A stretch of 64,000 nt of DNA from a virus. The stretch is taken from positions 1 through 64,000 of the IMG/VR virus record IMGVR_UViG_3300045988_101578. One strand, 5' to 3'. The notes beneath the pieces are model-generated. The model saw nothing but the letters and a program-made list of their open reading frames with translations, was not told the origin of the DNA and made no database searches. Positions 3,270 to 41,546 of the stretch are shown here, piece after piece. The position numbers and the translations under genes are program-made. Numbering within the stretch: position 1 is the first letter of the stretch; each line of letters opens with the position of its first letter.

Positions 3270-3878
3270 ATGAAAACAAAACAGAATAAAACAATCAAGA
3301 TCCTATTAGCCGTAGCACTTATGTTTATGGCTTTTTTAATGATGGAAAATACAGTACACGCAAAGACAAAAAGAAGTAAATACAGAACGACAAACGGCAT
3401 TTACAACGCAGATGGAACAATTGACACGGTTGACGGTTACTGTTGGAAAGTTCGCAAGGAATCATATGCCTATCCAAAGACTACCGTTGTAACTGTAAAA
3501 TTCAATACTCACGGCACTAGAAACAAGCTCGATGATTCGATCGTAAAGATCAATGCAAAGAATAAAAACATCCAGCTTGTAAACGATTATATACGCCACG
3601 AGTACGACTTAAAAGCCTATAGAGTAAAGTATATCAGCACTGGAAAATTAACCGATAAAATGATTCGTGAACGTGCTGTAAAGCATACGATTTATGTGGA
3701 AATTATTAAAAGTGTTTCTGCCGGAGGTAAACATGGAACGTATGAAAAAGGTTATTACATTGCATATAACAAACGTGTACGCAGGGGAAAGCACGTAACA
3801 AGTTATTGCATATGGAATCCTTGCAATAGCTACTGTGATGATGTAGAAGCGATCGCAGATAATGGAAAAATCAGATAG
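3270..3878 (+). CDS. secreted protein with N-terminal signal peptide
   Basis: MKTKQNKTIKILLAVALMFMAFLMMENTVHA signal-like N-terminus. Confidence 0.5.
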   Translation: MKTKQNKTIKILLAVALMFMAFLMMENTVHAKTKRSKYRTTNGIYNADGTIDTVDGYCWKVRKESYAYPKTTVVTVKFNTHGTRNKLDDSIVKINAKNKNIQLVNDYIRHEYDLKAYRVKYISTGKLTDKMIRERAVKHTIYVEIIKSVSAGGKHGTYEKGYYIAYNKRVRRGKHVTSYCIWNPCNSYCDDVEAIADNGKIR

Positions 3879-3894
3879 AAAGAAGGTTGGAATC

Positions 3895-4143
3895 ATGAAA
3901 AAGAAATTAATCAATATTAATATCAAGGCATTTTTGGAAAAATTCAATGAAGAATACGACTTCTTATATGATAACTATGATCGAGTAGCTGGTTATACAG
4001 AAGCACTTGAAGCTGGTGATTCTTTTATAGAAAGTCATTTAGATTTTGTTAAAGAGTTTAATAATTATAGGGGAGATATTCTTTCTAGTGATAGAGAAGT
4101 TGTAGCATTTATGTTTGCATTAGAATCCATGGAGGTGGCATAG
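3895..4143 (+). CDS. hypothetical protein (start moved to the internal ATG with RBS gaaggttgg)
   Basis: track ORF 3862..4143; the ATG at 3895 has the better RBS. Confidence 0.4.
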   Translation: MKKKLININIKAFLEKFNEEYDFLYDNYDRVAGYTEALEAGDSFIESHLDFVKEFNNYRGDILSSDREVVAFMFALESMEVA

Positions 4144-5493: not shown

Positions 5494-5952
5494 ATGGAAA
5501 ATACAAATACATTAACAGTAAAATTCGTCGGTTTTGGTGGTGGATTTATGGAATATCCATGCTATAAAGATGAAAACGAAAAGCTATATTTTGACATAAA
5601 CGATGGGAAAAATGGACTTGACTTATACACTGGTGCTTACATGGATGAACTTGGAGATATTTGTGGTGAACCAAATCAGTCAGTAATGCAAGAAATCAAA
5701 TGCGATAAACCATTTTCAAGGAATCTTAGAGAACGTGATTATCAGTTTCTAAGTAGATTAAAAGCAGATTGCGAATACTTCTTAAGAAATGGAAACGGTT
5801 GTAAGAAATACTTATATAAAGAAAGCATTGAAAAACATTGCGATGAGATGGAAAAAATATGGAATTCATTTACAGACGAACAAAAACCTAAATGGTTAAC
5901 GATGGAACAAATAAAAGATTTTAGAAAGAAAATGTTAAATACAAGAAAGTAG
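5494..5952 (+). CDS. hypothetical Cys-rich protein
   Basis: ORF. Confidence 0.45.
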   Translation: MENTNTLTVKFVGFGGGFMEYPCYKDENEKLYFDINDGKNGLDLYTGAYMDELGDICGEPNQSVMQEIKCDKPFSRNLRERDYQFLSRLKADCEYFLRNGNGCKKYLYKESIEKHCDEMEKIWNSFTDEQKPKWLTMEQIKDFRKKMLNTRK

Positions 5953-35933: not shown

Positions 35934-36268
35934 TAAATATAGTTGCGATTATATTGGGAACGATTGTTGGTAACATTATTGGTAACGAAATATTTGATAG
36001 TTTGTATCGAAAAGATAAACGTGTTAGTGATTTTCACAAGGATAATGATGTATCACTGCGTACTCGGACAGAAAATGATATGAAGCAATTAGATATGATG
36101 TTTGATGATCAGGTTATTAGGATATTAAGAGATATTCAAAACCATTGGTTACCTGAAAGACCAATAATATACGAAGATGATCGTATGTATACAGAGTCAC
36201 AATACCAGGCAGAAAAGATGCATCAGGCTATTGACGATGCCGTTACTGTGTTATTAGAAAAAATGTAA
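35930..36268 (+). CDS. hypothetical protein with N-terminal TM
   Basis: overlapping start. Confidence 0.45.
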   Translation: MINIVAIILGTIVGNIIGNEIFDSLYRKDKRVSDFHKDNDVSLRTRTENDMKQLDMMFDDQVIRILRDIQNHWLPERPIIYEDDRMYTESQYQAEKMHQAIDDAVTVLLEKM

Positions 36269-36274
36269 AGCGAG

Positions 36275-36595
36275 GTGATTAATATGGGAGCCAATATTGA
36301 GTTTGCCATTGGCTATGCAATCGGTTTTTGTATCGTTGGAGTGATTGTATTTCTAAGATACGAAAGAAAGATGGATCGACTGAGGAAGACAAATGTAAAT
36401 CTGATCTTGGATAAGATGTCGTTTATGTCAGATGCCAACGACAAAGAAAGTGGTACATATAATAAGGAAGAAACTCGTTCAGATGTTAAGGACGCAGTGA
36501 AGTATGCAATGAAGAAAAGTCATCCAGATAATGGTGGTAGTGCAGATGATTTTAGAAAATTTAGAGAGCTTTATGAAGAAATGGAAGGTAAGTAA
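36275..36595 (+). CDS. membrane protein with a C-terminal J-domain-like segment (HPD motif)
   Basis: AMKKSHPDNGGSADDFRKFRELYEEM resembles the DnaJ J-domain helix II-III. Confidence 0.35.
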   Translation: MINMGANIEFAIGYAIGFCIVGVIVFLRYERKMDRLRKTNVNLILDKMSFMSDANDKESGTYNKEETRSDVKDAVKYAMKKSHPDNGGSADDFRKFRELYEEMEGK

Positions 36596-36877
36596 ATGCT
36601 AAAGGTCGGAGATAGAGTTTATATTTATAGAATGAAGCCAGCGGCTAAAGGAGGTTTGGTTAGAAATAACGACAAAGGTACAATTACTCGCATCGGAACA
36701 GATGAGATTGGTCGCAGATATGGGTATAGATATATGACCGTTAAATTTGACAAACCAGTAAATACCTCTAATCGTGATATTTACTCTTTAGAATTTTTTG
36801 AAAACAAGGATGATCGTAAGATAGGTAGAATACGAGATATTGGATTCTTACTATATGGTAGAAAATGTGAGGAATAA
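36596..36877 (+). CDS. hypothetical protein
   Basis: ORF, tightly coupled to neighbours. Confidence 0.45.
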   Translation: MLKVGDRVYIYRMKPAAKGGLVRNNDKGTITRIGTDEIGRRYGYRYMTVKFDKPVNTSNRDIYSLEFFENKDDRKIGRIRDIGFLLYGRKCEE

Positions 36878-36882
36878 GACTC

Positions 36883-37071
36883 ATGAGTAAACAAGACTCA
36901 TTAAAGTTTCTGAAAAGTCTGATTGATGAAATTAGAAACGGTTTAACAAAAGAAGATATTGAGCGAGGTCAGAAATTGATGGAGAAAATAAAAAAAGAAG
37001 AACTAAAAGAAGTTGAAAATAGTGATGGGTATTGGGAATTTATAATGCCAGATGGTAAAGGAGTGAAGTAG
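36883..37071 (+). CDS. small hypothetical protein immediately upstream of the nuclease gene (stop 2 nt before its ATG)
   Basis: ORF. Confidence 0.4.
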   Translation: MSKQDSLKFLKSLIDEIRNGLTKEDIERGQKLMEKIKKEELKEVENSDGYWEFIMPDGKGVK

Positions 37072-37073
37072 AT

Positions 37074-38705
37074 ATGGCTAAGAAACAAGACGATAACACA
37101 ATGACAATTGCAAGGAAAATCACGTTAATTCCTGTTGCAAGCGAGCGAAAAGAGTGGAAGAAAAGAATTGATGCTTTCTTAGAAAAAGATTTTCCAAGGA
37201 AAATTGAAGCAAAGAAGAAACAGATTAAGAACACAAGTAAACCAGAAAAGAAAGATGGGTATAAACAGCAGCTTGCAGAATTAGAAAAGCAATATGAAGA
37301 GTTCAAAGAAAATGAAATGAAAGAATACACTCAGAAAATGGTTAATGATTATACATATGGTCTTGTGAGAGATGCGATGGAAAGTGAAGCAAGGCGAAAG
37401 AATTACATTATGTCATACATATATACAAAAATGGTACAGGACGAAGTAGCGAATTTACCGACTCTTACAGAAAAGAATAAATGGGTGAGTGCCAATGTTA
37501 ACAAATGTTATCGTAAAGCGGGTAATAAAAATGGAAGTATTTTTACAGACGTTGATATTAGTAATCCGTTGATGGGATACGGTTTTGAGTTTAAACAAGC
37601 GCTTACAAGCAAAATTAAGAATTTAATTAAAGATGGAGTATTGAAAGGAAAAGTTTCTGTCCCAAATTATAAATTCGATTCTCCTTTTACTTTAAGTAAT
37701 AAGAGTTTTGGTATTTTTACAGATTGCAAAGATATAACAGAATTAAAAAAGAATATTGGTAAGCCTACATACCCAGTGTATGTGTGCTTGGGCGGTAATG
37801 GTCTTCCAACAATTGCTAAATTCAAGATTAATTTTGGACATAAACAAAACAAGAATAAGGCAGAATTAATTTCAACAATTATTAAGATTTTCACAGGGGA
37901 GTATTCAGTTGGCGGAAGTACATTTGGTATTGATAATAATAAAATAGAAATGAACTTAAGCATAACAATGAAAAAACAAAAAATGGATTTAGATGAAAAT
38001 ACTGTTGTTGGAGTTGACTTGGGACTTGCTGTTCCTGCTGTGTGTGCTTTAAATAATAACGAATATGATAAACAATATATTGGAAGTGGGAATGATCTTG
38101 TTTCAAAAAGAACAAAATTTCAAAATGAATATACGCAGTTACAAAAAGCTTTAAAATTAGCAAAAGGTGGACATGGAAGAAAAAGAAAATTATTAGCTTT
38201 AGAAAGGCTAAAAGAAAAAGAAAACAATTTTGTTGATACATATTGTCATCGAGTTAGTAAAAAAGTTGTTGATTATGCAATCAAACATAGAGCAAAATAT
38301 ATCAACATAGAAAATTTAAAAGGGTATGATTCAAGTGAATTTGTTTTAAGAAATTGGAGCTTTTATAAACTACAGCAATATATTACATATAAAGCAGAAC
38401 AATGTGGGATCATAGTTAGAAAAATCAATCCATCATTTACATCTCAAGTGTGTAGTTTTTGTGGGCACTGGGAGAAAGGACAAAGAAAAGATCAGGCAAC
38501 ATTTAAATGTAAGAACCCTAATTGTAAAAGTCACAAGCTATATACTGTAAATGCAGATTACAATGCGGCTAGAAACATCGCAATGTCAACACAATTTACA
38601 GACGATAAATTTAAATGTTCAGAAGAAACGATTCAAGCTGCGGCAGATTATTATGGAATTGTATTAGAAGATGATAAAAATAATGATAATAAAAAAACTG
38701 CTTAA
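37074..38705 (+). CDS. cas12f: Cas12f (Cas14)/TnpB-family RNA-guided nuclease, 543 aa; RuvC split by a CxxC...CxxC zinc finger; catalytic D/E/D intact
   Basis: RuvC-I VVGVDLGLAVPAVCALNN; GGHGRKRK linker; RuvC-II KYINIENLKG; Zn finger CSFCGH...CKNPNCKSH; RuvC-III NADYNAARNIA; RBS gaaggagtgaag; followed by tracr-like RNAs and repeat-spacer arrays. Confidence 0.8.
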   Translation: MAKKQDDNTMTIARKITLIPVASERKEWKKRIDAFLEKDFPRKIEAKKKQIKNTSKPEKKDGYKQQLAELEKQYEEFKENEMKEYTQKMVNDYTYGLVRDAMESEARRKNYIMSYIYTKMVQDEVANLPTLTEKNKWVSANVNKCYRKAGNKNGSIFTDVDISNPLMGYGFEFKQALTSKIKNLIKDGVLKGKVSVPNYKFDSPFTLSNKSFGIFTDCKDITELKKNIGKPTYPVYVCLGGNGLPTIAKFKINFGHKQNKNKAELISTIIKIFTGEYSVGGSTFGIDNNKIEMNLSITMKKQKMDLDENTVVGVDLGLAVPAVCALNNNEYDKQYIGSGNDLVSKRTKFQNEYTQLQKALKLAKGGHGRKRKLLALERLKEKENNFVDTYCHRVSKKVVDYAIKHRAKYINIENLKGYDSSEFVLRNWSFYKLQQYITYKAEQCGIIVRKINPSFTSQVCSFCGHWEKGQRKDQATFKCKNPNCKSHKLYTVNADYNAARNIAMSTQFTDDKFKCSEETIQAAADYYGIVLEDDKNNDNKKTA

Positions 38706-38852
38706 ATATTTGGTGTGTTTTGGAGGGAGTTCGGTACTCCCTCAGCCATAAATAAAATGGTTACGCCAAAAGTGAGGAGAAATCACTCACTAAAATTTGT
38801 GTAATGAAGCAGAACGTAAAGTTTTGTATTGTATACATAATTAAGATTTGAG
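38706..38852 (+). ncRNA. tracrRNA-like scaffold 1 (conserved blocks tggtgtgttttgg / acgccaaaagtgag / actcactaaaat, then an anti-repeat atttgtgtaat and gttttgtatt complementary to repeat family 1)
   Basis: hairpin gagggagt/actccctc; stem agtgag/ctcact; anti-repeat complementary to attacacaaat of the downstream repeat. Confidence 0.6.
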
Positions 38853-38954
38853 GTTTGAGAACCATAAAAAATTACACAAATACAAAACGATCTTGGCTCG
38901 CTGATCCAGTGCATGGGTGTTTGAGAACCATAAAAAATTACACAAATAAAATAC
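38853..38954 (+). CRISPR. mini CRISPR array 1: 36-nt repeat gtttgagaaccataaaaaattacacaaatacaaaac, 30-nt spacer gatcttggctcgctgatccagtgcatgggt, second repeat 34/36 identical
   Basis: repeat-spacer-repeat read directly. Confidence 0.7.
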
Positions 38955-39089
38955 ATGGCATGTTTTGGGAAATTTTATTCCAATTAAAATTTCTGGTCAC
39001 AGAGTTGTGGCTATGCCAAAAGTGAGATCGTAAGGTACTCACTAAAATCTATGTAAATTAGGTAACAAAATTGGACAAAAGAATTTGAG
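38955..39089 (+). ncRNA. tracrRNA-like scaffold 2 (catgttttggg ... tatgccaaaagtgag ... actcactaaaat then anti-repeat ctatgtaaattaggtaacaaa)
   Basis: hairpin gaaatttta/taaaatttc; stem agtgag/ctcact with a different loop; anti-repeat complementary to repeat family 2. Confidence 0.6.
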
Positions 39090-39263
39090 GTTTGATACCT
39101 AATTAATTTTACATAGGTACAAAACTGTGCAAGCCTCTTTCTTCTGCTAATGCTTTGTTTGATACCTAATTAATTTTACATAGGTACAAAACGGCAGAAG
39201 CAATTAAAGAAAAAATGCAAAAATGTAGTTTGATGCCTAATTAATTTTACATCATAAACTTAA
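39090..39263 (+). CRISPR. mini CRISPR array 2: two exact 36-nt repeats gtttgatacctaattaattttacataggtacaaaac, spacers of 31 and 35 nt, and a degenerate terminal repeat gtttgatgcctaattaattttacatcataaacttaa
   Basis: R-S-R-S-degenerate R architecture. Confidence 0.8.
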
Positions 39264-39273
39264 TAAAATTTTA

Positions 39274-39400
39274 AAATATTTGGTGTGTTTTGGGAGTATA
39301 TAAAATATTCTGCTCAAATAATATTGAGTACGCCAAAAGTGAGGCTTACTATAGCACTCACTAAAATCTATGTTATATTGTCGGATTTATGTTATTTGAT
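39274..39400 (+). ncRNA. tracrRNA-like scaffold 3 (aaatatttggtgtgttttgggag ... tacgccaaaagtgag ... actcactaaaat then anti-repeat ctatgttat ... ttgtc)
   Basis: first 20 nt identical to the scaffold-1 start; anti-repeat complementary to repeat family 3. Confidence 0.6.
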
Positions 39401-39497
39401 GTTTGACAACTATAAAAAATAACATAGGTACAAAACCAACACATTTGCCCTTGATTTATCGAATGTGTTTGGCAATTATAAAAAAAATAACAAAAAC
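39401..39497 (+). CRISPR. mini CRISPR array 3: 36-nt repeat gtttgacaactataaaaaataacataggtacaaaac, 30-nt spacer caacacatttgcccttgatttatcgaatgt, degenerate 31-nt terminal repeat
   Basis: read directly. Confidence 0.65.
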
Positions 39498-39517
39498 CTA
39501 AAGGAATTTAAACAAAA

Positions 39518-39685
39518 ATGAAAACAAGACGGCAACGTAAACAGGAAATAAAACGATTCTTTGATCGGCTGAGTCCCAGTGAATTGGACAGGCTGTTAGA
39601 AAGAAATGGAATTAATGATAGAGAGTCCAATGAAGCTTCTGTATATAGAATCATTAAAGAAGAAATTGAGAAAGGAGAGATATAA
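39518..39685 (+). CDS. small basic protein (55 aa, MKTRRQRKQEIKRFFDRLSPSELDRLLERNG...) immediately after the arrays; below the ORF-track cutoff
   Basis: ATG 39518 with RBS aaggaa 12 nt upstream; stop 39683-39685. Confidence 0.35.
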   Translation: MKTRRQRKQEIKRFFDRLSPSELDRLLERNGINDRESNEASVYRIIKEEIEKGEI

Positions 39686-39686
39686 T

Positions 39687-39989
39687 ATGGCACATAACTT
39701 GTATATTGAAACACAATCAGAATATACAGGATGTAGTCCACAGCTGGAGGTATTAAATGTAAGAGATTGCAAACATATCATTGCATCATTAGATCATTAC
39801 CCACCTACAGCCGAGGAGGTTAAGAAAGCAGCTTGTATATTAATCGGACGATGTATTTACAAACGTATTTGGAACATGGAAATCGACATTGATAATTTGG
39901 ATATGCATTGTTCTCCGCCAAAAGAAATGACGATTGAAGAAATTGAAAAGGAACTTGGTTATAAAGTTAAAATTGTAAAGGAGAAATAA
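39687..39989 (+). CDS. hypothetical protein (start at ATG 39687 after RBS aaaggagaga)
   Basis: track ORF 39606..39989 extends 5-prime over the small ORF. Confidence 0.45.
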   Translation: MAHNLYIETQSEYTGCSPQLEVLNVRDCKHIIASLDHYPPTAEEVKKAACILIGRCIYKRIWNMEIDIDNLDMHCSPPKEMTIEEIEKELGYKVKIVKEK

Positions 39990-40300
39990 TGCCAATGGCA
40001 AAAAAGAAACAAGGAATGTCGTTTGAAATGATGATGCAAAATATGGAAATTAATCCAAGGCAATTGTATCGTCGTAGTTCGTGGAAGAAGACACGAACAA
40101 CTTATGATTATGTGTTTATGATGTGCGAAGAAGAATTAAATGAGATTATTCCATTTGATAAAAAATATAAAATGAAACCACTCTTATGTAGAGACCAAAA
40201 TGGAGTTATAACATTGGGATGGTTGCCTACACAAGAGGATATTTTCGCAAATGATTGGGTTGAGCAAGGATGGGATTTTAACAGTAAAAGGAAGAGGTGA
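39989..40300 (+). CDS. hypothetical protein
   Basis: ORF. Confidence 0.45.
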   Translation: MPMAKKKQGMSFEMMMQNMEINPRQLYRRSSWKKTRTTYDYVFMMCEEELNEIIPFDKKYKMKPLLCRDQNGVITLGWLPTQEDIFANDWVEQGWDFNSKRKR

Positions 40301-40308
40301 ATAATTAA

Positions 40309-40593
40309 TTGAATTTTATAAAAGCAATGATTGCAATAAAAAAAGACAAAACTACTATAAGAAGAGGCATTTGGGGAAAGGAAAAGTATTTGAAAATTTA
40401 TTCGTCAGAATTAACTAATGTTTATTTTGAGTGTAATGATATGGGTGAATATAAGCCAGATTCAATTATTTTTTTATTTGATAAAGAAAACGCAGAAGTT
40501 TGGATACCTCTTGCGGAAGATGTATATGCAGATGACTGGGAAATATATGTTGAGTCACTTAATAAAGGTGAGCAGATAAAGGAGGAAAAATAA
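40309..40593 (+). CDS. hypothetical protein (TTG start)
   Basis: ORF. Confidence 0.4.
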   Translation: MNFIKAMIAIKKDKTTIRRGIWGKEKYLKIYSSELTNVYFECNDMGEYKPDSIIFLFDKENAEVWIPLAEDVYADDWEIYVESLNKGEQIKEEK

Positions 40594-41546
40594 TGAAGTG
40601 TTTTTATCATGTTGATCAAGACGGCATCGTATCTGGTTTCTATGTCAGAAAAGCTTGCGAACAGCGAGGTTTAGCATTTGAACCAGAAGACTTCCGAAAA
40701 ATTAATTACGACATGAAATTCCCGTTTCATGACATTGAGCAGGATGAATTTGTGTTTATTGTAGACTACAGTATTGAGCCAGAAGAGATGTGGCAGTTGC
40801 TCAGTATTACAAAGAATGTATTTTGGATCGACCATCATCAGTCTACGATTGAAGCGTATAAAGATTTCAAGTGTGATGTAAAAGGAATCAGAATTACTGG
40901 AGCGGGTATTTCAGGAGCGAATTTGACATGGTTATATTTTAAATATATGTGTGATGAAAATTGGGAGCAAATTGAGAGGACGGATGAGAAAAATGTAAAA
41001 AGATTACTCAATATATATAAATATAAAGCAGATTATCCAAAACTGGCAGAATATACAGCCATGTGGGATACATTTTATTTTGGTGAAACGTCAAAACAAT
41101 TCGTAAAAGCATTTCACTATGCATTTGAATCGTATGATTTTGATGCGTTAAGTCCATTGCTAAACACGTTAAATAAAGATCAAGGAATTTATGAAGCAGC
41201 AAAAATTATTGGTGATATGATAGCAGATGGCTTATCAATTATTGAGTATTTAGCAGCAAATGCAGAACAATATCTTAGAGCATATGGTTTTGAAACCATA
41301 TTTGAGGGACATAAAGTCTATGCAATCAACCGAGCATTAATCAATTCTGATTTCTTTGAATCTATTGATGCTTCTAAATATGATATGTTCATTGGTTTTT
41401 CGTTCAATGGAAGTATGTGGGAATATCAGTTGCGATCCGCAGAACAGGATAAAGTAAATGTGTATGAGCTTGCTGTGAAATATGGTGGCGGTGGTCATCC
41501 AAATGCAGCTGGGTTCAGAAGTGATAAGTATGTGTTAGGAGTGTGA
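40593..41546 (+). CDS. DHH/DHHA1 phosphoesterase, NrnA-like (nanoRNase / pAp phosphatase family)
   Basis: YHVDQDGIVSG (DxD motif), FWIDHHQ (DHH), GGGGHPNAAGF (DHHA1 GGGH); 317 aa like NrnA. Confidence 0.7.
   Translation: MKCFYHVDQDGIVSGFYVRKACEQRGLAFEPEDFRKINYDMKFPFHDIEQDEFVFIVDYSIEPEEMWQLLSITKNVFWIDHHQSTIEAYKDFKCDVKGIRITGAGISGANLTWLYFKYMCDENWEQIERTDEKNVKRLLNIYKYKADYPKLAEYTAMWDTFYFGETSKQFVKAFHYAFESYDFDALSPLLNTLNKDQGIYEAAKIIGDMIADGLSIIEYLAANAEQYLRAYGFETIFEGHKVYAINRALINSDFFESIDASKYDMFIGFSFNGSMWEYQLRSAEQDKVNVYELAVKYGGGGHPNAAGFRSDKYVLGV

Follow-up and report, generated by a model that had tools for sequence, protein, structure and literature searches.

The DNA considered here is a stretch of 64,000 nucleotides (nt), positions 1 to 64,000 of the IMG/VR virus record IMGVR_UViG_3300045988_101578 (the window), and the locus of interest within it is a gene for a predicted Cas12f1-type CRISPR nuclease followed directly by a block of repeats, spacers and RNA scaffolds. 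After the stop codon of cas12f there are 812 nt (38706-39517) without a credible open reading frame (ORF), with the ATG of the next gene at 39518, which agrees with the roughly 800 bp of non-coding DNA described in an original prediction made from the sequence of the window. The block is organised as three modules, each comprising a scaffold resembling trans-activating CRISPR RNA (tracrRNA) together with a mini-array, and the features are as follows.

37074 to 38705, plus strand: cas12f1-type effector gene encoding 543 amino acids (aa), stop codon at 38703-38705.
38712 to 38852, plus strand: module 1 scaffold, with the 5' arm GGTGT of stem P1 at 38712-38716, GTTTTG at 38717-38722 and the anti-repeat TTTGTGTAAT.
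38853 to 38954, plus strand: module 1 mini-array, with a repeat at 38853-38888, spacer 1 and a terminal repeat at 38919-38954.
38889 to 38918, plus strand: spacer 1, 30 nt, in module 1.
38957 to 39089, plus strand: module 2 scaffold, with P1 GGCAT:ATGCC, GTTTTG at 38962-38967 and the anti-repeat CTATGTAAATTAGGTAACAAA.
39090 to 39263, plus strand: module 2 mini-array, with repeats at 39090-39125, 39157-39192 and 39228-39263 (3' half degenerate).
39126 to 39156, plus strand: spacer 2, 31 nt, in module 2.
39193 to 39227, plus strand: spacer 3, 35 nt, in module 2.
39282 to 39400, plus strand: module 3 scaffold, with P1 GGTGT:ACGCC, GTTTTG at 39287-39292 and the anti-repeat CTATGTTATATTGTC.
39401 to 39502, plus strand: module 3 mini-array, with a repeat at 39401-39436, spacer 4 and a degenerate terminal repeat at 39467-39502.
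39437 to 39466, plus strand: spacer 4, 30 nt, in module 3.

The effector is predicted to be a Cas12f-family RuvC nuclease with its D-E-D triad and zinc ribbon intact, the protein being laid out as a helical and WED N-terminal part, a RuvC domain with D315, E413 and D495, and a TNB zinc ribbon. The catalytic signature of the Cas12f/TnpB lineage that had been claimed for it is borne out by the motifs GVDLG (D315), NIENL (E413), NADYNAARNI (D495) and CSFC (C460/C463), although the zinc finger, originally given as CxxC...CxxC, is of that form in its first pair only, the second pair, CKNPNC, being CxxxxC (C479/C484). In a 20-member family alignment of relatives D315, E413, D495, C460, C463 and C479 are invariant, and in comparison with PDB sequences the three catalytic residues line up with conserved residues of Al3Cas12f. 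Profile searches matched the protein to Cas12f1-like_TNB (1.4e-17) and also OrfB_IS605 in Pfam, to guided_TnpB (2.6e-39) in NCBIfam, and to Cas12u3 (1.5e-94) and Cas12f (4.4e-92) in PADLOC, with residues 58-511 covered.

Both sequence and fold place the best matches of the 543-aa protein in Cas12f. Its top matches among PDB sequences are all Cas12f, at E values of 2e-59 to 1e-24, led by Al3Cas12f (2e-59) and CnCas12f1 (5e-59) and then RhCas12f and AsCas12f, with Cas12p (the 'Cas12 hacker', 9jfs) at 3e-5 and ISDra2 TnpB at 1e-3 forming the weak end. An AlphaFold2 model built with the 20 relatives as input has a mean predicted local distance difference test score (pLDDT) of 85.9, and when it was compared with the PDB by Foldseek the top 22 matches were Cas12f chains, with CnCas12f1 at 4e-27, and TnpB (1e-11 to 1e-13) and Cas12p (6e-11) were found lower down. 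In the Karvelis 2020 naming V-U3 is reportedly the same as Cas12f1, and for this reason the effector is taken to be of the Cas12f1 type. Its length lies within the ~400-700 aa of type V-F effectors, which derive from TnpB and have a split RuvC domain.

Repeat finding and manual parsing of the non-coding block gave three groups, with seven 36-nt repeats and four spacers in all. The full repeats begin at 38853, 39090, 39157 and 39401, and the terminal copies, in each of which the 3' part is degenerate, begin at 38919, 39228 and 39467, that of module 1 being nearly intact with two changes that are both in the 3' tail. The repeats of 36 nt and spacers of 30-35 nt that had been predicted were thus confirmed, as was the repeat-spacer-repeat plan for modules 1 and 3, but module 2 departs from that plan in being repeat-spacer-repeat-spacer-repeat.

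The scaffolds, of ~120-140 nt, lie 5' of each array on the same strand as cas12f, that of module 1 beginning 7 nt past the stop codon, and the three non-coding units are paralogues of one another. All three start with GG(Y)(R)T-GTTTTG and continue with two variable hairpins and A(Y)GCC-AAAA-GTGAG-loop-CTCAC-TAAAAT, followed by the anti-repeat, a short linker that ends in ATTTGAG or ATTTGAT and the first repeat, and the core GCCAAAAGTGAG-loop-CTCACTAAAAT is common to them. In module 1 the GTTTTG is followed by two hairpins, the P1 3' arm ACGCC and the stem P3 (GTGAG..CTCAC) with a bulged A, whilst the P1 of module 2 (GGCAT:ATGCC) is compensatory with respect to those of modules 1 and 3. A covariance model of the core (R1) has exactly three matches in the window, all on the plus strand (38741-38803 at 3e-13, 38991-39055 at 1e-14 and 39308-39374 at 3e-15), and each scaffold when folded with its first repeat is more stable than shuffled sequence, with z-scores of -6.1, -5.8 and -4.7 for modules 1, 2 and 3 and a predicted architecture that is identical in all three. 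A scan of 36000-41000 against Rfam at E<=1 gave no match.

The predicted stems are also maintained by compensating changes. Over 24 distinct scaffolds the pairing of P3 stands at 98.9% and the upper three pairs of the stem show GC/AU/UA/CG swaps, the covariation score of P3 was reached by none of 500 shuffles, and slid controls were only 34-44% paired. Pairing is kept in all the variants of P1 (GGTGT:ACGCC, GGCAT:ATGCC, GGCGT:ACGCC and GGTGT:ACACC), and the last six nt of the repeat, on the spacer side, covary with the 5' hexamer of the scaffold in the manner of a pseudoknot (CAAAAC~GTTTTG, CGAAAC~GTTTCG, CAGAAC/CGGAAC~GTTCTG and CAAAAT~ATTTTG). The structured scaffold that had been proposed for each mini-array is supported by the model matches, the fold z-scores and this covariation.

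For each repeat in the window the best partner is the anti-repeat of its own module, at -11.8, -20.5 and -16.3 kcal/mol for modules 1, 2 and 3, compared with -4.4/-5.4, -10.3/-12.3 and -8.6/-8.6 kcal/mol for repeats 1, 2 and 3 with the non-cognate anti-repeats. Across 45 distinct modules the repeat:anti-repeat pairing averages -14.6 kcal/mol for cognate pairs against -9.9 kcal/mol for non-cognate ones, and the share of dissimilar repeats that equal the cognate repeat in strength of pairing has a median of only 5%. These comparisons support the reading of the units as putative tracr-like scaffold plus mini-array modules in which each anti-repeat covaries with its own repeat.

Immediately 5' of the scaffolds there are A+T hexamers, with a TAAAAT that lies 5-6 nt before the module 2 scaffold and is made by the 3' end of the module 1 terminal repeat, AAATAAAATAC (38944-38956), and at the same offset TTAAAT for module 1 (38702-38711) and TAAAAT for module 3 (39272-39281). 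These hexamers could be -10 boxes, one per module, although a consensus promoter scan did not call them.

It is apparent that the modular arrangement extends well beyond the window. A survey of the family, in which 85 sources amounting to 680 kb were scanned with R1, found 134 matches, all of them on the strand of the effector and within ~1 kb of its gene. At least one match is present in 69 of the 85 loci, with two in 17, three in 18 and four in 4, so that at least 39 of the 85 gut-phage loci have 2-4 modules per effector, and these counts are lower bounds because R1 misses divergent scaffolds such as those of loci L017 and L019. Most of the 115 distinct matches have a pair of repeats with a period of 65-67 within 15-65 nt downstream. 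The modules are placed upstream, downstream or on both sides of the effector gene, and modules 1, 2 and 3 stay separate as orthologous lineages down to ~70% effector identity. Four bacterial relatives (Bacillus bruguierae, Priestia endophytica, Anaerotignum sp. and a Clostridium) have a single downstream array, with 6-15 repeats in the first three of these.

One cognate scaffold per mini-array, repeated two to four times per effector, is an unusual arrangement and would be the new element here, as no description of one effector with several tandem cognate-scaffold modules was found in the searchable literature, although an earlier description is possible. The view that a three-module architecture is undescribed therefore stands as far as that literature goes, but the architecture is not unique to this phage and is instead a trait of a gut-phage clade. 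In L019 the scaffold has ~100 nt inserted in the P3 loop (5650-5770, GTGAGG...CTCACTAAAAC), which is why it is missed by R1, and in L017 (GCA_029782595, a 49%-identical relative) a repeat-spacer-repeat unit of 103 bp is exactly duplicated in tandem (3753-3958), and family arrays therefore change by duplication too.

The spacers turn over between related phages that keep the modules. Phages with effectors 90-93% identical to that of the window keep modules 1-3 and have no spacers in common with it, and the near-identical contig L002 is without one repeat-spacer unit, that of spacer 2. Four metagenome contigs hold protospacers that match spacer 2 at 31/31 and two more hold ones at 27/31, none of them flanked by repeats, and the target site is within an SprT-like gene (Pfam 1e-10) that has as neighbours genes for a ParA ATPase, an HTH_36/DUF6017 Rep-like protein, a PBECR nuclease, an HNH/NUMOD4 endonuclease, a radical-SAM protein and a serine recombinase. 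Judged by its predicted genes the targeted element (L168 1-12995, PPYF01621623.1) is plasmid-like or phage-plasmid-like, and since neither PLSDB nor INPHARED holds a near match for the contig it would be an uncharacterised gut plasmid or phage-plasmid; its HNH/NUMOD4 protein is of the homing endonuclease type. Spacer turnover together with perfect foreign protospacers for spacer 2 indicates that the arrays act as genuine CRISPR arrays.

Other searches with the spacers returned little. The four spacers gave only chance 24-nt matches against INPHARED, no self matches in the window at <=3 mismatches, and no matches at <=6 mismatches in the collected related loci beyond the arrays themselves. Exact 24-26-nt seeds of spacers 1-4 found arrays only, or nothing, in IMG/VR, a codon-degenerate pattern of spacer 3 found arrays only in the same database, spacer 1 had no match in GTDB genomes or JGI metagenomes, and one spacer of the related locus L026 found only its own array in IMG/VR. 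Among sister phages, spacers at ~2580 of L065 and at 2626-2655 of L060-L064 are mutual reverse complements with a 3-nt offset, and would therefore be two independent acquisitions from one target on opposite strands; no cas1/2 was found near the locus in these phages. The apparent protospacer of the L065 spacer in L060-L064 was rejected, as it is the reverse complement of a spacer of another array and not a target gene.

A second target is cas12f itself. One spacer of the sister phage L057 (IMGVR_UViG_3300029861_000362), which has an effector 61% identical to that of the window, matches the cas12f gene of the window and, at 29/30, that of L026, a 93%-identical relative, whilst the allele of L057 is diverged there. 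The site in the window is the following.

38263 to 38292, minus strand: protospacer in the window's own cas12f, 28/30 to the spacer of L057, with TTTTG as its 5' flank on the protospacer strand.

Between L057 and the window the flanking genes have 93-97% nt identity, but cas12f only 70% and the modules 72-83%, and the same trend is seen when L035 and L031 are compared with the window (compared region 37051-39436). The cas12f cassette seems to diverge faster than any other part of the locus, and a divergent island combined with a spacer that targets the allele suggests an arms race or a homing-like dynamic acting on the cassette, with one spacer as its basis.

Among the PADLOC and Pfam matches listed for the 83 ORFs of the window (the best 25 families, the others being weak) there is no Cas1, Cas2 or Cas4, which is what the original prediction had claimed, and as none of these families is listed spacer acquisition would have to use other machinery or recombination. 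Some V-F loci carry cas1, cas2 and cas4, and V-U3-type loci without adaptation genes are reportedly known from the 2017 work of Shmakov. The absence fits a V-U3-like variant and phage systems generally (PMC7162821).

The explanation that is favoured, and which we consider likely, is that the locus is a phage type V-F1 (V-U3-like) CRISPR-Cas12f interference system, without an adaptation module of its own, that serves conflicts between mobile elements; on the sequence evidence the Cas12f1-type system is real and probably active. Each module would be transcribed on the plus strand, possibly from its own -10-like box, and the scaffold would pair with the cognate repeat, in cis for the first spacer, giving a natural single-guide transcript, and in trans for later spacers. 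The guide RNA would then load a Cas12f dimer, a protospacer-adjacent motif (PAM) would be recognised and RuvC would cut the target DNA, so that co-resident plasmids, phage-plasmids or rival phages would be eliminated in the course of infection. The adaptation machinery of the host, or recombination among phages, might supply new spacers, and the modules may go back to a scaffold-plus-array unit that was duplicated in tandem, after which each tracr:repeat pair co-evolved.

A number of observations weigh against this explanation. No PAM can be called, because the 5' flanks differ between the only two sets of protospacers compared, which belong to two different effectors (TTCGA/TTCAA for the spacer 2 sites and TTTTG/CTTTG for the L057 spacer sites), and the TTCRA flank does not obviously qualify as a T-rich Cas12f PAM. 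For three of the four spacers (1, 3 and 4) no target could be detected in the collections that were searched, and a scan for sigma-70 promoters and terminators gave nothing above shuffles. The anti-repeat of module 1 pairs with its own repeat at -11.8 kcal/mol and with the module 2 repeat at -12.3 kcal/mol, and the energy of the module 1 duplex falls within the range for shuffled repeats. The absence of cas1, cas2 and cas4 covers only the 64-kb window of a genome of at least 105 kb.

As the module 1 anti-repeat pairs about equally well with the module 2 repeat, cross-use of scaffolds is plausible, and the locus could be read as ordinary trans-acting tracrRNAs tripled by neutral tandem duplication, with a single tracr that serves all the repeats and a modularity that has no function. 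The modules are clearly paralogous and a CTATGT:ACATAG core is common to modules 2 and 3, but a neutral duplicate should decay, whereas distinct orthologous module lineages persist to ~70% effector identity with 2-4 modules in 39/85 loci, the anti-repeat and repeat co-vary inside each module, and every mini-array retains its own scaffold within 15-65 nt. The four bacterial relatives, with one array each and 6-15 repeats in three of them, also tell against functionless modularity, which we regard as unlikely. There is a small yet appreciable chance that the cas12f cassette is a selfish element of RNA-guided homing or allele exclusion among near-identical gut phages, which would resemble TnpB or a homing endonuclease. 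During co-infection a spacer would cut the divergent cas12f of a rival, and repair through the similar flanks would copy the cassette of the attacker. In its favour are the island of divergence between well-conserved flanks and the L057 spacer, which is aimed at window-type cas12f next to a TTTG-like flank, at a site where the allele of L057 itself is diverged. However, this basis is a single spacer of the 130 surveyed, the divergence of the cassette could equally be due to cassette swapping or diversifying selection in the absence of homing, and spacer 2 of the window aims at an unrelated SprT-like gene on another element, which fits plain interference.

Phages are known that carry mini-arrays or solitary repeats to exploit or block host CRISPR (PMC11656645), and the repeat RNAs might in the same way be decoys (RNA anti-CRISPRs), or might borrow a host Cas12f rather than arm a nuclease of the phage. 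Such a role is very improbable here and was rejected, as a full-length effector with intact catalytic residues lies directly upstream, scaffolds and effector co-occur on the same strand in 69/85 loci, and the scaffolds match the single-guide RNA (sgRNA) layout of the effector's own subfamily. Less credible still is that the locus is a TnpB element of the IS200/IS605 type with its omega-RNA, residing in a phage, and that the 'arrays' are degenerate transposon ends, a reading that had been set beforehand as one that would refute the prediction. The effector does match TnpB-family models and the module 1 scaffold, 7 nt past the stop, is roughly where an omega-RNA would be, but no TnpA/Y1 transposase is among the matches listed for the 83 ORFs, the scaffold model matches this locus alone in 64 kb, and the locus holds a fixed syntenic position in many phages. 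In addition the guides have 36-nt repeats at their borders and vary from one related phage to another, the spacer 2 guide matches a foreign gene and not the flanking DNA, and in sequence and fold the protein is far nearer to Cas12f than to TnpB; the insertion-sequence reading was therefore rejected.

If the favoured system is compared with V-F1/V-U3 Cas12f of known structure (CnCas12f1 8hr5, Al3Cas12f 9nzo/9nzr and AsCas12f 8j12), the effector is of the same family, with sequence E values of ~1e-59 to 1e-43, Foldseek values of 4e-27 to 4e-24 and a like catalytic triad and zinc ribbon, and the arrays are alike in their 36-nt repeats and ~30-nt spacers. Validated Cas12f sgRNAs, such as those of Al3Cas12f (...GAGGUG..CACUCAAAAAAUUCACUUGA/UCAAGUGAAUAUCCAAC) and MG119-2 (repeat tail UAUAAAAC), both in the supplement of PMC13186708, share with the window scaffolds a closing stem P1, variable hairpins, a P3-like stem with a bulged A, an A-rich linker, an anti-repeat:repeat duplex and a 3' repeat tail of 7-8 nt before the spacer. 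In the guide of the window this tail can pair with the 5' GUUUUG as a pseudoknot, following the Cas12f sgRNA layout. The differences are that the effector has only ~25-30% identity to known Cas12f over the aligned structure and a longer K/E-rich helical N-terminus, and that it is carried by a phage of ~105-170 kb, with the array also present on one 211-kb contig. Known V-F1 systems moreover have one tracrRNA and one array, whereas the window has three scaffold-plus-mini-array modules (2-4 in relatives) with diverged cognate pairs.

Compact systems of phages, including Cas-phi (Cas12j), Cas-lambda and the Cas12p 'hacker', are like the window in having a phage-borne single effector with compact arrays. 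Cas12j and Cas-lambda are not known to need a tracrRNA, and Cas12p is distant from the effector of the window (3e-5 as opposed to 1e-59 for Cas12f by sequence, and 6e-11 as opposed to 4e-27 by Foldseek), so that on these scores membership of the Cas12p clade was rejected. Single-effector type V systems of phages with compact arrays, no Cas1/2/4 and spacers against mobile elements or phages were described by Al-Shayeb et al. 2020 (PMC7162821), and the rarity originally claimed for such a locus was thus overstated, as phage V-F/V-U systems were among those reported. The effector family, its tracr dependence, phage V-F/V-U systems, the lack of Cas1/2/4, compact arrays and phage-versus-phage targeting are all already documented (PMC7162821 and PMC11656645).

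Viral CRISPR mini-arrays have been reviewed as a means of competition between viruses by Koonin and Makarova 2024 (PMC11656645), and the one- or two-spacer arrays of viral genomes are like those in the window, with the theme of targeting related viruses matched by the L057 spacer against window-type cas12f. Classical viral mini-arrays have host-type repeats and use host Cas proteins, whereas the phage of the window brings its own effector and scaffolds; it does not belong to that host-dependent class, as an effector lies upstream on the same strand in 69/85 loci.

In the model of Jin et al. 2025, cited in PMC13565253, type V CRISPR came about through the splitting of omega-RNA into tracrRNA and CRISPR RNA (crRNA). 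The window resembles the TnpB omega-RNA/TranC intermediates in having a contiguous same-strand scaffold and guide just 3' of the nuclease gene, and a fold predicted as one molecule with the guide at its 3' end recalls an unsplit omega-RNA. It is unlike TnpB/TranC in that a downstream repeat bounds the guides, spacers vary, there is no transposon context and the protein groups with Cas12f. Each module may be a single-guide RNA that occurs naturally in unsplit form, a living intermediate with omega-RNA on the one side and tracrRNA plus crRNA on the other.

Whilst the component parts are familiar, the modular guide architecture is a conserved trait of the family with both engineering and evolutionary angles. 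If the modules work as predicted this would be a natural multiplexed Cas12f, in which one miniature nuclease is served by 2-4 guide cassettes with co-diverged tracr:repeat pairs, and compact editors could draw on these as ready guide scaffolds that are partly orthogonal and resist recombination. Contiguous scaffold-repeat-guide units would likewise be available as a natural series that bears on how omega-RNA was split into tracrRNA and crRNA, and large gut phages of a widespread clade, with at least 112 contigs in IMG/VR, would be turning Cas12f on plasmid-like elements and on each other's CRISPR genes.

The phage location that had been claimed for the locus is upheld both by the genes around it and by the viral contigs that carry relatives. 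Matches to PHROGs and Pfam in the window include DNA polymerase III alpha, a DnaB-like helicase, RecJ-like and RecD-like proteins, Ant/Bro, ArdA, two Tad2-like proteins, sigma factors and an integrase, and all non-nested ORFs of at least 90 aa are on the plus strand, with a GC content of 33.5%. An identical effector protein is encoded on 22 metagenome contigs, the longest shown being 61, 106 and 164 kb, with human gut among the sources, and effector relatives of 90-99% identity are carried by IMG/VR viral contigs of 44-169 kb. A relative of the effector is encoded on no fewer than 112 viral contigs of IMG/VR, 691 homologues at E<=1e-30 are found in the protein database, and megablast of the locus against INPHARED phages gave no match. 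The isolate Roseburia sp. 1XD42-69 also has relatives, on a scaffold of 190 kb, and others occur in metagenome-assembled genomes of Lachnospiraceae, Butyrivibrio and Ruminococcus, and because of the taxa that carry them the host of the phage is probably a gut clostridial bacterium.

Further Pfam matches in the window are to two sigma-70-like proteins, a PemK/MazF-like toxin, a phage integrase, and LPD11 and PcfJ-like domains. The neighbours of cas12f are small ORFs and anti-defence genes, with two tandem Tad2-like (Thoeris anti-defence) ORFs just 3' of the CRISPR locus at 39989-40297 (3.8e-8) and 40309-40590 (1e-11). A further ORF, for ArdA antirestriction, is near the start of the window at 818-1363 (7e-30), and with the Tad2-like ORFs it places the CRISPR locus in an accessory, anti-defence part of the genome.

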